A DNA stretch of 63,959 nucleotides, the filler included, from Basidioascus undulatus (lineage: Eukaryota): assembly GCA_000826855.1 (NCBI GenBank). It is 8 parts of 8 records of this genome, joined end to end, with 100 filler letters (N's around TTAATTAATTAA, not from the genome) between each part and the next. Parts side by side here need not be neighbours in the genome. Positions count along the whole stretch, not along the records: positions 21,801 to 47,913 come from JTLS01000196.1; 7 more parts are not named here. One strand, 5' to 3'. Position numbers and translations under genes: made by a program. Shown in pieces: positions 28,144-37,369 of the stretch. A model generated the notes under the pieces. That model was not told where the DNA came from. It searched no databases and worked only from the letters and a program-made list of their open reading frames with translations. Every line of letters begins with the position of its first letter. The stretch's first letter is position 1.

Positions 28144-29795
28144 ATGTCCAAGCGCGCAGGCGAGGACGGCGCGGTTGCGCTGGTGAAGCGCCCGCGGCAG
28201 GACGAGGACGAGGGGCGGACGCAGGCGCTGGCAGTGTCCGCGCGCAAGGACGACGAGAAGAACGCGCTCATCCGCCAGGTGACGCGTACTTCGGGGCTGT
28301 CGGCGCCGATTGTGAAGCTGGAGGGGGCCCATTCGGTGAGTGGGAGGTTCGGGAGGTGCCTGCGCAAGCGTAGATGGTGAGTTGAAGCTCATGGACGGGC
28401 GTAATGGCGCAGGCGGAGATCACGAGCTGTAGGTTCGACCAGACGGGGAATAGCATTGTCGCGGCTGGAGTGGACAGGACCATCTGTGCGTACGCTCTCT
28501 GGTTCAGCGCGAGGACAGGTAGAGAACGCCAAGTTTTACCCTTACCTCCCCCAACCCCCCTCCAGCTCTCTGGCGAACCTATCCCCCCAACACCAACTAC
28601 GGCCTGATCCAGCACGCCCACAAGCAGGCCATCACCTCCGTCCTCTTCTCCCGCCTCTCACCCTCCGCGCCGCTCATCTACTCCGCCTCAGCGGACGGCA
28701 CGCTCGCCGTGCACTCGTCCAAAACGGGCGAGCTCGTCCGCCGCCTGCGCAACGGCCACACGGACATCGTCAACTGCCTCGACCGCACACGCCACGGCCG
28801 CGAGCTCCTCGTGAGCGGCGGGGACGACAGCTGCGTGATTGTGTGGGATCCGGAGCAGCGGGATCCGGTTGAGATGATCGAGTGGATCTGCCCCGTCACC
28901 GCCGTGGCGTGGAGCGATGACGGGGCGCAGGTATTTATTGGCGGATTGGATAACGACATTCATGTGCGTTCCATCACCCAGCCTCCCCTTCTAACCGTTT
29001 CGGTCCCCTTTTCACTTTGCCCCGATCCCTTCTGCTCACCGCGCCCCTCCGCCCTTAACAGGCATACGACCTCCGCACGCACAACACGTTCTACACCCTG
29101 CGCGGGCACACCGACACGATTGCCGGCCTCCGCCTGTCTCCAAACGGGCAATACCTCCTCTCGACGTCCTACGACTCCGCCGTCCGTGTCTGGGACGTCC
29201 GCCCCTTCTCCGCCTCCCCCACGCGCGAGCACCGCGTCCTCCTGGGCTGCCCGGCGGGCTTCGAGGGCGTCTACTCCCAGCCGGCTTGGAGCCCCGACGG
29301 CGCGCGCGTGGTCGCAGGAGGCGCGGATCGCGCGGTCACGGTGTGGGAGGTCGAGAGCGGGAGGGTGCTATACAAGGTGGGTGGGTTGCTCGGAGAACGC
29401 TGGGGTTCGCTGGACGCGATGGATGTGGCAGGTGCGGTTGGATATGAGGGAGCTGCTTAGGGGTTGAGAGTTAGCGAACACGAACTGGAGTTTCCGCGGC
29501 CGCGCACTAACTGAACCGCATTGGGCTGGGCGTGGGACACAGCTGCCGGGCCACACTGGTACGGTCACCGCAACGGATGTGCACCCGAAAGAGCCAATCA
29601 GTGCGTTTTTCCTTCGTCTCACTACCGGCATCTTCATCTCCTGACCTTCCGCGTTGCTCCGCCCGCAGTCGTATCCGCAAGCAAAGACGTGCGTATTCCG
29701 CTTTTGGTGCGCAATCTGCGCTTGAGACTGCTTCAGCTCATTTGGTCTTCCTTATATAGGCGACGATGTTCCTCGGCGAAATCGAGCCGTCTTGA
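28144..29795 (+). CDS. SNRNP40: U5 snRNP 40 kDa WD40 protein (SNRNP40/Spf38)
   Basis: RTSGLSAPIVKLEGAH, NYG, SASADGT, LLVSGGDD, VTAVAWSDDGAQVFIGGLDNDIH, VRVWDVRPF, GADRAVTVW, LYKLPGHTGTV..HPKEPI, MFLGEI; complete spliced model. Confidence 0.93.
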
Positions 29796-32224: not shown

Positions 32225-33002
32225 GTAATGTGTGGAACGCTTGAGCCGCAATTTGGGCCCTTCCATTTTCAATATCATACCTATTTCAGCGCGTACGTTG
32301 AGCTGGCTCTATGTCTCAAAGCAGGGTCAGACTCTCTAATAAGATTCTCAGGCAACGTCTGCCAGTCGCGCCTGGAGGCAACACACGGCGCGCGTCGCGG
32401 GAGAAAGATTGCACAAACGCGCACGAGAATGACAGAGACTATATGGCGTCGCTACGGATAGTAGGATAGAATCCATGCAGTAGTTGCAAGCGAATGTGCT
32501 ACCATTCGAGCAGGTAAAGCCTAGACGATGATAATGCAGTCAGGAAACGCTTCGCATTGGCAAGCCGTACGCAATGAAAGTCGTTCGACCGATCAGATAT
32601 CAGCTGCCTACTGGTTAAGCCTGTCGGTTAATCCTTGTTCATCCACCGGTAAGACATTTAGACAGCGGACTATACTCCTGATACCGATTGGCATTTGCAT
32701 GCGATTGAGCGAGCACAATTAACTACAGTGTTCCGTCGGGATTCACAACCCTCTCAGAGGATTTTCTGGGAGGCGACACTACTCATTATAAATTAATAAT
32801 AAAGAAGAAGAAACAGGCGGCTGCAAGAGATTCTTGCAGTCCGTGTTCGCAGCACGTCCGGACGTCGGACGTCATCCCGGGCTGGAGACGATTCCCACAC
32901 TCCCGGCTGTTCGCATTCTCCTTTGGACCTTGAGCCCCTTCCATCATCACCTCACCGAGCAGTAACGATAGATACACACAAGAATCCTACTTTCCCCGCA
33001 CG

Positions 33003-36000
33003 ATGGCCCTCCCGCGCTACACGCTCTCCCAAATCCTCAGCGGCCACACCGACGACGTAAAGGCCCTGGCGTCTTCTTCCTCCTCCGGGACGACCACGCT
33101 CTACTCTGCTTCTCGGGACGGCACCGTCCGGGCCTGGAGCCGAGGTGCAGGCGCCGGAGAAGCGCACGAGGGGGAGTGGGCGCAGGACAAGGTGTACGAG
33201 GGGCACAAGGGCTTTGTGAACGCGGTTGCGGTCCTCGACTCTCCTGAGCCGTCCGAGAGTGCGTCCTCCATCTGCGTTTTTTCCATATCCAAGGTTGGAG
33301 AGAGCTGATGTGAGGGGTGGTGGGGAGAACAGACCTCTTAGTGTCAGGCGACATCGACGGCCTCCTCCTCCTGCACGACCCCGCGCGAACGGACAAGCCA
33401 CTCCATGTCCTCTCTGAGCATTGGGCGAACGTGTGCGCGCTGGACGTGGATCCCGCGCGGGGGTTGATCATCAGTGGGAGCTGGGACAAGACCGCGCGGG
33501 TATGGGCGAGGGAGGAGGGCGGCGAGTGGGCGCAGGTGCGGAGGCTGGAAGGCGCGGGGGAGGCCGTTTGGGCGGTCAAGGTCTTGCCGGACGAGGGGGG
33601 GTTCTTGGCGGGTGAGTTGCGCTGTAATACTGAGGGTGACTCATCGCTCATATGGAGGGGATGGGACGCGCAGGCTCGGCAGACAAGTCCGTTCATATCT
33701 GGTTCCCGCCCTTGGCACCTTTTCCTAACTCATCCACCTACCTTGCCTTCCCCAGACTGATACGCCACTACTCCACTGCCGGCGAACTTCTCCGCACATT
33801 CTCGTCCCACAGCGATGCCGTCCGCGCACTGGTCCTGCTCGACTCCGACCGCTTCGCCTCGGCATCTAACGACGCGTGCGTTGATCTCCTTTCCCCTCCT
33901 TCCTGCCTTCACCTTCCCTCTCCTCCCCTTTTCGCGAGAAACAGAAAACTTACACACTTTTGAGGAACAGCACAATCCGCAAGTGGTCCCTTTCCAGCGG
34001 CGAGGAGCTCTCCACCCTCTCCGGCCATTCCTCATACATCTACGCCCTCGCCGTCCTCACCTCTCCTTCCCCGTCCTCCTCTTCCTCACCTAACGAGGAC
34101 TACCTCATCTCAAGCGGGGAAGACTACGAAGTCCGAATTTGGCTGGGTACGCCTCATTTTCACTCTTTACCCCCACCGGCTGGCCTTTTACAAAGAAGGT
34201 GCGCGGGATGCAGGCGAAACATGCCTCCAGACGCTCTACCTCCCCGCCGTGTCTCTCTGGTCCCTCGCCGTCCTCCCCAGCGCCGGCGCCTCGCCAACAG
34301 GGGATGTCGCCCTCGCCGGGTCGGACAAGAAGATCTACGTCCTGACTTCTGCGCCTGAGCGCGCGGCAGAAGGGGAGACGCTGGATGTGCGTCTGTATCT
34401 GTTTTGGCGCTTGTTCCTGGGGAGCGGAAGAGACGCTGATGGATTGCCCGGCGGGCGAAACAGGCTTGGTCGGAATGGCAGGAAAGCCTTCCGATGCGGT
34501 CAGTCCCGAGATCGGCATTCTCTACTTCACCGCTGACTCCCCGCACCCACTCCACCCACAGCCAAACCGGCCGCAACGCGCCCCCCGCGCTCCCAGCGCA
34601 GACGCTCGAGCTCGAGCTCGACACGGCCGACGACGCGCCCAACCTGCTCTTCACCTACACGCGCGGGACGGACTTCGAGGCCGCTGCGAGGGAGTTCGTC
34701 CAGCAGCATGAGCTGCCGGAGTCGTATGTCGGTAGGATTGCGCAGTTTGTGAGGGGGGCTTTGGAGGAGGGGAGAGAGGGGGAGGCGGAGGCGGAGGCGG
34801 AGGTTGAGGTGGAGGGAAAGGGGGAGGGGAAGGAAGAGGATGGGGAGGAGAAGAAGAAAGATGAGGAGGAGAAGGTTGATCAGGACGACAAGGCGGAACA
34901 GGAGGAGAAGAAGCCAAGCAGACCGGCATGGGACGAGTATGAGGGGTTCGCGACTGATGGTGCGTTCCTTGCTCGGTTTTCCTTCCATTCATGCTCGACG
35001 TGCTCGTCTGACCTGGGGATTGTGGGTACGTCAGAGGACAGCAACGCAGGTTCTTCGGACGTGAGCTTTTCTTGGCCTCACTTTCGCCCTTCAGTGGAGG
35101 AAGCGCAAGAAGCGCTGATGTCTTGCTCGCTCTGGCTCGTTCTCGCGCAACTCAGGTCGGCTCGAAACCATTTGAGGCCACTCTCAAGGGCGTGGCGGAG
35201 CTAATCAAGTCCGGAAAAGGTGCTCTCCCCCCTCTTCCCTCCGCCCCTGTAGTCCGAGTTAGCCAGCTGATGAGATAATGGGAGCACAGTCAAGAAGATC
35301 ATGATTATGGCCGGCGCGGGGATCTCTACCGCCGCGGGGGTGCGTTTTTCTCGGACTACGTGCGGGGGTGCGCAAATGTATTTGTTGGCTCATCTGCCCG
35401 CATAACAGATCCCGGATTTCAGGTCGCCTGAGACTGGGTGCGCTTCCTTCGCTCGTCCCTTAGATACATGACGGCGGCTAATTGAAGACGATGGGCGCGC
35501 GCACAAAGGCTGTATGCGAACTTGCAGTGCGTCACGTCCGGTTCGCATCCCGGGCCAGGAGTGTGCGGGTGGAACTGAGCAATGCGAGCCGCTGCAGAAC
35601 GTATGGCCTGCCTTACCCGGAAGCGATCTTTGAGATCGGGTACTTTTCGCGCAAACCGGAGGTGCGTCGTTGAACAGCATGAAGAGCACGCGGCCCTTTG
35701 AGCGTGGCAGATTGACGCATTCCGATGCTCGGATAGCCGTTCTACACCCTCGCAAAGGAGCTCTATCCCGGTACGTGTACCTACTCTTCCCGAACGCAGC
35801 GAGGGCGGCGGCTGATGCTTGTGGGGTGGTGCGCGTGAGGAAGGTCGCTTCTTGCCGACTATGACGCACTACTTCTTTGTTCTGCTGGAGAAGAAGGGAC
35901 TGCTTCAACGAGTGTTTACGCAGAACAGTTCAGACTTTCTTTCCCCGATCATTTGGGCAGAGCTGAGCTGGCGACCGAACTGAATGTGCGACTTTCTGCA

Positions 36001-37011
36001 GTCGACACGCTAGAGCGGATCGCGGGTCTACCAGCAGAGTGCGTCGACTTGTCTCTTCCTTTCGCAGTACAAGACTGACATGGAGCTGGACGGGCACTGA
36101 TGGGATCGGACAGGCGCATAGTCGAAGCGCACGGCTCGTTCGCAACAGCGCGGTGCATCCGATGCAAGCGCCTCGCAGACGCAGACTGGGTGCGCCAGTG
36201 CGTCGAGCGCGCAGAAGTCCCGCGGTGCAGGGAGAAGTGCAAGGGGAGGAAGGATGCGCTGGTTAAGCCTGATGTGCGCATCGAGGTCTAGTCTGGATGT
36301 ACGGCGCAAGGGGAAGGTGCTGATCTTGGGGAGTCGCGGTAGATTGTCTTCTTTGGAGAGGTATGTTGCACGCGGAGGGCGGTGGTTGATGTGGTTTGTG
36401 GATGAAGAGCTAAACTGCTGCCGTGCACGACCAGGGTCTTCCAGACTTGTTCTTCCAACGCCTCTCCGACTTCGCACAAGCAGATGTACGCTTCTCCTCG
36501 CGTTCTTTCCCCCATCCCTCATTTCCCCACTGAACCCCATTGTTCCCTCTCCCGCCTCCGCAACCAGCTCCTAATCGTCCTCGGCACATCCCTCAAAGTG
36601 CACCCCTTCGCCTCGCTCATCGCCCATGTGCCCCCGCGCTGCCCCCGCGTGCTATTCAACCTCGAGCCCGCGGGGGAGGAAGGTCCCGGCGGATTCGATT
36701 TCTTCCGCGAAGGCGGGAGGGACGTGGTTGTGCTCGGCGAGGCGGACGACGGTGTGTTGAAATTGGCGGACTCGCTGGGGTGGAAGGCCCGTATTCCTTC
36801 CTCGCTTCCCGGTTTGGAAGAGCAGGAGGCTGAAAGGTTTTTACGGCGAGGGCAGGACGAGCTAGTGGAGTTGTATGAGACGGAGCGGGAGAGAAAGACC
36901 AGGGAGTTCGGAATGGAGGGAGCGGCGAAGGAACAGCCTAAACTGTCGGCGGACGAGGAGCTCGAGAAGATCGCGGAGCAGTTGGAGAAGGTGTCGGTCG
37001 GGCTCAAGTGA
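33003..37011 (+). CDS. Fusion protein: Doa1/PLAA-type WD40 + partial PFU + acidic linker + Hst2/SIRT2-type NAD-dependent deacetylase (22 exons, 819 aa model)
   Basis: WD40: LSGHTDDVK, SASRDGTVRAW, FVNAV, HWANVCAL, SGSWDKTARVW, AVWAV, GSADK, HSDAVRAL, FASASND, GHSSYIY, SSGED, PAVSLWS. PFU-like: LELDTADDAPNLLFTY..AAREFVQQHELPESYVGRIAQFV. Sirtuin: GAGISTAAGIPDFRSPETGLY, TQNIDTLE, EAHGSF, CIRC..CREKC, KPDIVFFGE, GTSLKVHPF. All junctions are phase-compatible. Confidence 0.82.
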
Positions 37012-37369
37012 GCCCCAAACTGGATGACTATGTTGGATGCAGATATCGAGTGGTCGGTCGAGAGGAGTGCACCCTGCTCAGGTGCCTGCCTATCTCGTCT
37101 CGCGAAGGATGCTTGTAAAAGAGAGCAATTGAAGTTGGGACAACAGAGAGGCATCGAAAGGGCTTTTTGTGCATGAGACTGCGTCAAGTAATATTCCATG
37201 TTCGAGCCTGCCCGATGGCCGGTGAGGCGCCTTCAAACGTCGCATACCGGAACCTGTGCCTGTTGGCACGCCCTCGTAAACTGCGCCTCAGTGTACGTCG
37301 TGCTGTTGAAAAGGCCCACGATCCTGCCAGACTCCCAATTTGAGAAACATGTTTGAAGCAGACGATAGT

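Follow-up and report, generated by a model that had tools for sequence, protein, structure and literature searches.

A candidate fusion of a ubiquitin adaptor with a lysine deacylase is encoded within the fungal genome of Basidioascus undulatus (assembly GCA_000826855.1), at positions 33003..37011 (+ strand) of the 63,959-nucleotide stretch of DNA that was analysed, hereafter the window, which joins eight parts of the genome and takes these positions from record JTLS01000196.1. The open, spliced translation of this region reads as one gene, in which a WD40 propeller of the Doa1/PLAA type is followed first by a PFU domain reduced to its C-terminal half, then by an acidic linker and by a sirtuin of the Hst2/SIRT2 type standing at the PUL position. 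An earlier, sequence-only reading had proposed a propeller and a sirtuin in this arrangement within a single gene, and three colinear orthologs from other basidiomycetes uphold it. On sequence evidence, the fusion of the WD40-half PFU part with the sirtuin is very probably real and the product of one gene. All the parts of the gene described below lie on the + strand.

The fusion was examined by comparison with database proteins. A word-index search with the last exon gave as best match P0001, a protein of 1445 aa from Wallemia mellicola, and also found P0022 from W. hederae, and the precomputed Pfam lists of both proteins include WD40, PFU and SIR2. In a second search, made with the relevant part of P0001 among proteins of 794-2529 aa, at least three of the best 120 of 868 matches carry WD40, PFU and SIR2 together, namely P0001, P0022 and P0031, the last being a protein of 975 aa from Phaffia rhodozyma; the combination predicted from the window is therefore found in W. 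mellicola, W. hederae and P. rhodozyma. The B. undulatus model is colinear with P0001 (48% identity over 792 aa), P0022 (45.5% over 789 aa) and P0031 (40% over 729 aa). Moreover, the stretch from the last helix of PFU up to the GAG motif contains, in all four fused proteins, no Met other than that found 2-4 residues ahead of GAG, within the first Rossmann strand. Colinear order, deletion of the N-terminal half of PFU and lack of a Met ahead of the sirtuin are thus features of all four, B. undulatus included. Since the PFU deletion is common to the fused proteins, independent accidents of gene modelling are very unlikely and, as judged from their alignment, the four are a single family.

Two of these database proteins contain more than the fusion. 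P0001 (residues ~1-746) and P0022 (~1-771) carry an upstream MRD1-like part with five RRM domains, and at the junction between this part and the propeller a Met aligns with Met1 of the B. undulatus protein. Each of the Wallemia records probably represents two genes that the predictor has joined.

The model of the fused product of B. undulatus, hereafter the window protein, was rebuilt from coordinates by in-silico splicing and by comparison with the orthologs. From the start ATG at 33003 to the stop codon TGA at 37009-37011, 21 exons separated by 20 GT-AG introns give a coding sequence of 2529 nt and 842 aa without internal stop, and the excision of an extra GC-AG intron at 36787-36855 leads to 22 exons, 2460 nt and 819 aa. 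The 22 exons and 2460 nt, all in phase, are the figures of the sequence-only reading, and they are reproduced given a 13-nt exon 3 and the removal of 36787-36855. The 20 introns measure 62-95 nt each and all have GT at the 5' end and CAG, TAG or AAG at the 3' end. The short exon 3 (33674-33686, donor GTCCGT at 33687) encodes a peptide that aligns with the orthologs and is backed by the Wallemia proteins; a donor at 33702 was rejected, as it yields an in-frame TGA. As for the last intron, the 69 nt of 36787..36855 are in frame and their retention adds 23 residues, which are absent from all three orthologs, while their excision restores a conserved GW..EL.ELYE helix. An alternative GT-AG intron at 36791-36850 likewise keeps the frame, and the segment is probably a GC-AG intron with this GT-AG option beside it; the choice has no bearing on the fusion. 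The C-terminal helical tail, whose start is conserved in the orthologs, and the stop codon occupy 36856..37011.

The part of the model that matters most for the fusion is the bridge between propeller and sirtuin. Its four introns (34387-34463, 34499-34561, 34960-35034 and 35061-35155) have a length of 63-95 nt, all run from GT to CAG and contain a CTRAY branch motif 23-37 nt ahead of each 3' end, and the peptide junctions that they create read as had been described earlier. Furthermore, no stop interrupts the stretch from the PFU helix to the Rossmann strand, and its only in-frame ATGs are the two that encode Met in the IMIM strand itself, again as first noted. Exon 7 is a 35-nt connector (34464..34498), and across its junction with exon 8 a conserved RQTGR motif is built that aligns with both Wallemia proteins, a match by which the splice of intron 7 can be considered validated. 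Further downstream, the frame would be broken by retention of intron 9 (95 nt) or by skipping of exon 9 (26 nt), and intron 8 (75 nt) is in frame and stop-free, its retention only lengthening the linker. In the frame of exon 8, an unspliced open reading frame (ORF) extends over 34440-35201 on the + strand; it is already open ahead of exon 7 and meets a stop immediately behind 35201. If intron 9 were left unspliced, a protein with the propeller and the half PFU and without the sirtuin would result, which could be an alternative isoform.

The propeller (33003..34386, approximately aa 1-335) is encoded by exons 1-6, located in the spliced model at 33003-33258, 33333-33611, 33674-33686, 33756-33875, 33971-34146 and 34214-34386. 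In Pfam scans, which were run on single-exon translations with cut-offs of 27 bits for WD40 and 26.2 bits for PFU, WD40 matches were obtained in exons 1, 2, 4, 5 and 6, and three of the five exceed the cut-off. Exon 2 matches the solved propeller of yeast Doa1 (3odt) with an E value of 5.6e-15, and the ortholog P0001 is colinear with residues 7-301 of the same structure (E 3e-55). The identity of the propeller to three canonical Doa1 proteins is 39-42%, with 41% to the fused Phaffia ortholog. These comparisons support the assignment of the N-terminal part as a homolog of the seven-bladed WD40 propeller of Doa1.

Downstream of the connector, the C-terminal half of a PFU domain, consisting of two strands and two helices, is found at 34614..34754 within exon 8 (34562-34959). 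The sequence-only reading had taken this part as PFU-like, and a Pfam PFU match is indeed present, at 26.5 bits; it covers only profile positions 60-106 of 113, so that the claim stands for the C-terminal half and fails for the rest of the domain. The same holds for the fused orthologs, where the profile is covered from 57 to 111 or from 59 to 109 in P0001, P0022 and P0031, whereas in canonical Doa1 it is covered from 2 to 111. In a MAFFT alignment, the same ~70 residues of the PFU N-terminal half are missing from all four fused proteins when compared with three canonical Doa1 proteins, and in B. undulatus the missing half is encoded in none of the three frames of the 175 nt between exons 6 and 8. 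The complete PFU domain of Doa1 and PLAA is therefore not present. Half PFU and connector together are only 17-24% identical to canonical Doa1. In an AlphaFold2 model of P0031, residues 497-550 adopt a strand-strand-helix-helix order with block pLDDT values of ~85-96, so that a compact, folded half PFU is predicted.

The acidic linker (34755..35170), for which no homology to a known domain was seen, is made up of the last part of exon 8, intron 8 (34960-35034), exon 9 (35035-35060), intron 9 (35061-35155) and the first part of exon 10. It counts 79 residues from the PFU helix to the N-terminal helix of the sirtuin, among them 23 E, 10 K, 9 D and 9 G; its length is variable and its conservation poor across the four fused proteins. 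In the model of P0031, the corresponding residues 552-647 have pLDDT < 50 and the linker is disordered. Neither the window pieces nor the fused orthologs gave a Pfam match to a PUL domain, which is present in the canonical P0250 and P0113, and it is at the PUL position that the sirtuin stands.

The sirtuin core of the SIRT2/Hst2 type occupies 35156..36786 (exons 10-21) and appears complete. The GAGIS motif lies at 35313-35327, the catalytic His at 36130-36132 and the codons of the four Zn-binding Cys start at 36154, 36163, 36226 and 36238, the second Cys pair having here a Cx3C spacing; the intactness of the NAD-binding motifs, the catalytic His and the four Zn cysteines, as first read, is thus borne out residue by residue. 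The Rossmann NAD-binding motifs GAGIS, PDFRS and TQNID are all present, as are Pfam SIR2 matches in exons 16 and 18, and the orthologs match the whole SIR2 profile (1-180 of 180). Chains of SIRT1 and SIRT3 align with exon 18, whose catalytic His and two pairs of Cys fall in register with those of SIRT1, and exon 10 corresponds to the conserved N-terminal helix of SIRT2-type enzymes and has no ATG. An alignment (A1) of 68 sequences combines 62 SIRT2-like proteins with three canonical Doa1 proteins and the three fused orthologs. It contains 62 columns in which conservation is complete or reaches 90%, and the window protein carries the consensus residue in 62 out of 62. In its sirtuin part it is 54-62% identical to the fused orthologs. 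Among solved structures, P0001 matches human SIRT2 with E 2e-83, SIRT3 with 1e-78, yeast Hst2 with 5e-68 and SIRT1 with 1e-56. The AlphaFold2 model of P0031, based on alignment A1, has a mean pLDDT of 61, and its sirtuin is confidently modelled, with most 10-residue blocks above 90. The window protein passes every sequence test for a class I sirtuin, and with good confidence the sirtuin can be expected to be catalytically competent.

The placement of this sirtuin was addressed by a maximum-likelihood tree of 34 sirtuin domains, that is, the window sequence and 33 database matches (30 organism-named and 3 unnamed; other matches were excluded). The window sequence groups with the two Wallemia sequences (support 97/91), and Phaffia with unfused Hst2-type sequences of Cryptococcus amylolentus and of a Tremellales species (93/84); the fused sequences are placed among basidiomycete Hst2, in a tree whose backbone is unresolved. 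The Hst2-type proteins of Rhodotorula, Rhodosporidiobolus and a Microbotryomycete are unfused, all being without a propeller. Since the sirtuin tree agrees with the relationships among the species, the fused gene seems to be these lineages' own Hst2 ortholog and not an additional copy, and the simplest history would be one old fusion whose N-terminal part was later lost in Tremellales. In the same tree, the SIRT2-like sequences of Ganoderma, Punctularia and Serendipita join those of Ascomycota (99/95), apart from the other basidiomycete Hst2, which suggests two old SIRT2-type lineages in fungi.

From a functional perspective, the product of ~820-840 residues would consist of a propeller, a remnant C-terminal half of PFU, a disordered acidic linker, a sirtuin core and a short helical tail, and would act as the Hst2/SIRT2-type NAD-dependent lysine deacylase of the lineage, with the tethered propeller as its targeting module. 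Ubiquitin or ubiquitinated proteins would be the likeliest target, because the Doa1 propeller is the higher-affinity ubiquitin-binding domain of its family. According to excerpts of the original papers, the Kd for ubiquitin is ~40 µM for the WD40 domain of Doa1 and ~1 mM for PFU, while PUL binds Cdc48 (PMC4828692); PLAA also has a high-affinity WD40 and a low-affinity PFU domain, the human and yeast propellers being 43% identical, a value in whose range the 39-42% identity of the window propeller to Doa1 falls (PMC5420347); and the Doa1 propeller is a transplantable ubiquitin-binding module without linkage specificity, able to replace another ubiquitin-binding propeller (PMC5663479). The statement that WD40 and PFU bind ubiquitin, made in the sequence-only reading from what is established for Doa1, cannot simply be transferred, because only half of the PFU domain is left, its N-terminal ~70 residues being deleted in all four fused proteins. 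The same reading had proposed a duplicated Doa1 N-terminus that directs NAD-dependent deacylation to ubiquitinated substrates or acetylated ubiquitin; both the duplication and this targeting are putative. Deacylation would be directed mainly, and without Cdc48, at substrates that carry ubiquitin marks or at ubiquitin itself; a link to Cdc48 is unlikely given that there is no PUL domain. The possible outcome would be that lysines of ubiquitinated substrates, or ubiquitin itself, are cleared of acetyl groups, permitting chain building. An active Hst2/SIRT2-type deacylase with the propeller as targeting module, most likely for ubiquitin, is on these comparisons a slightly favoured description of the fused protein. 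That the propeller still reads ubiquitin is about evenly poised, leaning if anything towards the negative. The full scenario of a basidiomycete ubiquitin-reading sirtuin, in which an Hst2 ortholog captured a Doa1 propeller and dropped PUL and ubiquitin marks recruit NAD-dependent deacylation, is put forward tentatively, as possible rather than probable.

Several observations weigh against this scenario or against the fusion on which it is built. The Wallemia models are over-merged with MRD1 and hence are weak witnesses taken alone, and introns 8 and 9, in the unconserved linker, are the sole splices lacking homology support, being backed by signals and frame. Moreover, the Tremellales and Pucciniomycotina Hst2 compared here are without the fusion, which is consequently dispensable there. 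The PFU domain is incomplete in the fused proteins, and the half PFU gave no match at E <= 1 among solved structures. The propeller of P0031 is poorly modelled by AlphaFold2, the alignment being shallow there and the Phaffia inserts long. Finally, a WD40+PFU fragment of Doa1 alone pulled down no substrate in vivo (excerpt of PMC4828692), and by analogy a propeller without PUL may bind weakly.

The loss of the PFU N-terminal half and of PUL is also the starting point of what is ranked as the main rival, according to which the fusion is real and the propeller is no longer a ubiquitin reader. It would instead be a scaffold for another partner or substrate of Hst2 (for example chromatin, tubulin or a regulatory protein) or an in-cis regulator of the sirtuin. 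WD40 propellers are generic interaction platforms, and the fused family has propeller signatures of its own that differ from those of canonical Doa1, for example around the blade preceding the connector; the low identity of half PFU and connector to canonical Doa1 (17-24%) points in the same direction. What speaks for a conserved surface is that the window propeller is about as close to canonical Doa1 (39-42%) as it is to its own fused Phaffia ortholog (41%), and, in addition, independent fusions of a zf-UBP finger to SIR2, described below, show that ubiquitin binding and a SIRT2-type sirtuin have been paired recurrently. On balance, a repurposed propeller is considered less likely, and targeting towards ubiquitin is kept as the leading proposal.

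Much less likely still, the fusion itself would be an artefact, with HST2 and a truncated Doa1-like gene lying next to each other on one strand as separate transcription units that only in-silico splicing here, and gene prediction in the relatives, have joined. Such an arrangement would fit with the lack of homology validation for introns 8 and 9 and with the frame (frame 1) that stays open without splicing from 34440 to the stop after 35201, where a sirtuin-less protein could end. It is also true that predictors merged MRD1 in Wallemia and that other database sirtuins have been merged (with PWP2/Utp12 in P0041, and with MBOAT and Avl9). A separate sirtuin gene, however, would have no ATG to start from: exons 9 and 10 contain none, and each ATG within introns 8 and 9 is either in the wrong frame or leads to a stop. 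In the linker of all four fused proteins there is no Met, whereas the false MRD1 junction does have an aligned Met. Furthermore, there is no dip in GC or spacer between the parts, the content of 500-nt intervals over 34750-35749 being 0.58-0.59 against 0.51 in the flanks, and both the arrangement and the PFU deletion are kept among fused proteins only 40-48% identical. Two separately transcribed genes are therefore judged very improbable. An assembly chimera of two unrelated loci within 34700-35200, for which no supporting evidence was found, can be practically dismissed, as the order of the parts is repeated in three other species and the composition is continuous across the region.

The one-gene fusion of propeller and sirtuin had been presented in the sequence-only reading as an unfamiliar architecture, and this is right for the literature and wrong for the databases: records of Wallemia and Phaffia in NCBI and UniRef have it, and no paper describing it was found. 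The architecture is, in other words, already catalogued in databases and undescribed in the searched literature. The fused proteins are named 'sirtuin 2', 'RNA-binding domain-containing' or 'hypothetical', and none is characterised. The full-text literature searched for the fusion or for Doa1, including PMC11274570 and PMC8788774, contained no description of it, with supplements and most subscription journals outside the scope of the search. 'WD40' is absent, by full-text count, from two surveys of basidiomycete sirtuins (PMC5399365, PMC10126416) and from a study of sirtuin evolution (PMC9486876), 'PFU' is absent from PMC10126416, and 'ubiquitin' is absent from PMC5399365 and PMC9486876; an excerpt of the latter reports 'little evidence' for chimeric sirtuins.

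The fusion also seems rare among sequences. P0031 was compared exhaustively with 1.84 billion representatives and Pfam was run on 48 among the 150 best matches, mainly those in which the sirtuin match starts at least ~100 residues into the protein, plus P0149, P0193 and the WD40-type P0250, and none of these 48 combines WD40, PFU and SIR2. The 102 unscanned matches are 9 giant WD40 proteins and 93 proteins with a sirtuin match too near the N-terminus for a propeller. P0031 and the Wallemia proteins are absent from the 150 best matches of P0031 itself; their cluster may be represented by another sequence or by a shorter one. Among longer proteins, the half-PFU exon gave no match in a word-index search, the ESM Atlas returned for residues 440-975 of P0031 plain sirtuin clusters only, and a metagenome scan with the half-PFU alignment (A2) produced 590 pattern matches and no confirmed one.

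Some look-alikes were rejected as members of the family. P0041 from Cryptococcus amylolentus, with WD40 and SIR2, is a PWP2/Utp12 protein joined to a sirtuin, in which nothing aligns to the PFU region, and P0146 and P0147 are tandem sirtuin fragments. Fusions to unrelated domains are common among database sirtuins, as in P0041, P0036, P0092, P0171 and P0264, the domains being PWP2/Utp12, MBOAT, Avl9, ZPR1 and a protein kinase. Most of these look like merged neighbouring genes, which calls for caution in architecture claims on fungal sirtuins.

As regards composition and surroundings, the overall look is that of an intron-rich and GC-rich fungal genome. GC content is 0.628 in the exons, 0.575 in the introns and 0.51 in both flanks, and GC3 is 0.78 for the whole coding sequence, with 0.81 for propeller and PFU together and 0.75 for both the linker and the sirtuin. 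The upstream low-GC spacer (32300..33002, GC 0.51) probably contains the promoter and the 5' untranslated region. Further upstream, long ORFs at 28523-29467 (+ strand) resemble the WD-repeat sequence of an unrelated neighbouring gene. On this upstream side of the window an MRD1-like gene is not apparent, and the neighbourhood seen in Wallemia is seemingly not shared. On the - strand, a 237-aa ORF at 36519-37232, antisense to the last sirtuin exon, is taken as a by-product of high GC and not as a gene.

Acetylation and ubiquitination compete for the same lysines, and to our knowledge few enzymes physically couple the reading of one of these marks to the erasing of the other. A fusion that is natural and conserved, and that supplies a SIRT2-type deacylase with Doa1's higher-affinity module for ubiquitin binding, offers a testable case with a built-in hypothesis of substrate choice, and it implies that a Doa1 propeller can work outside the Cdc48 system. 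If the ubiquitin-reading proposal is true, it would represent a third, independent route to the reader-plus-eraser design, beside HDAC6 and the zf-UBP sirtuins of protists. The fusion matters for annotation too: the fused proteins go only by the names given above, and at least two of their models are over-merged with a neighbouring gene.

Among known proteins, the closest relatives of the window protein are P0001, P0022 and P0031, with which it shares the order of the parts, the PFU deletion, the variable acidic linker, the conserved tail and the lack of a Met ahead of the sirtuin. Unlike it, P0001 and P0022 begin with an additional MRD1 part of five RRM domains, in all likelihood a neighbouring gene that was merged in, and P0031 has long low-complexity inserts in the propeller and the source name 'sirtuin 2 ...'. 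With yeast Doa1/Ufd3 and human PLAA, the window protein shares a homologous and colinear propeller and the last two strands and two helices of PFU; Doa1/Ufd3/PLAA are Cdc48/p97 adaptors made of WD40, PFU and PUL, whereas the window protein is without the PUL docking site and without the N-terminal half of PFU. The PLAA/Ufd3/Doa1 adaptors are moreover stated to have 'no catalytic activity' (excerpt of PMC5420347), in contrast to the catalytic sirtuin of the window protein. Because PFU is incomplete and PUL is absent, so that two of the three defining domains fail, the window protein is not a member of the Doa1/PLAA family as this is defined.

Yeast Hst2 and human SIRT2 are class I cytoplasmic sirtuins, and the window protein has their complete catalytic core with all the conserved residues, differing by an N-terminal extension of ~490 residues that includes the propeller. 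The Hst2-type proteins of Tremellales, Cryptococcus and Pucciniomycotina compared here are without this extension. The deacetylase HDAC6 carries a ZnF-UBP ubiquitin-binding finger. It shares with the proposed ubiquitin-reading sirtuin the design of a lysine deacetylase with a ubiquitin-binding module, by analogy only and without homology of the reader module, since the reader fold (a zinc finger versus a WD40 propeller) and the deacetylase class are both different. A parallel in design is found in seven of the 48 scanned SIRT2-like proteins, where a zf-UBP domain (PF02148) is located ahead of SIR2 (P0169, P0236, P0244, P0260, P0268, P0277 and P0282); P0074 from Perkinsus chesapeaki is also listed with PF02148 and PF02146. 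These proteins have the reader-plus-deacylase design that is proposed for the window protein, with a zinc finger and not a WD40 propeller as reader, and seem to derive from a separate event that joined a ubiquitin reader to this class of sirtuin. Given their occurrence in seven of the 48, the pairing of a ubiquitin reader with a SIRT2-type deacylase would have arisen more than once.

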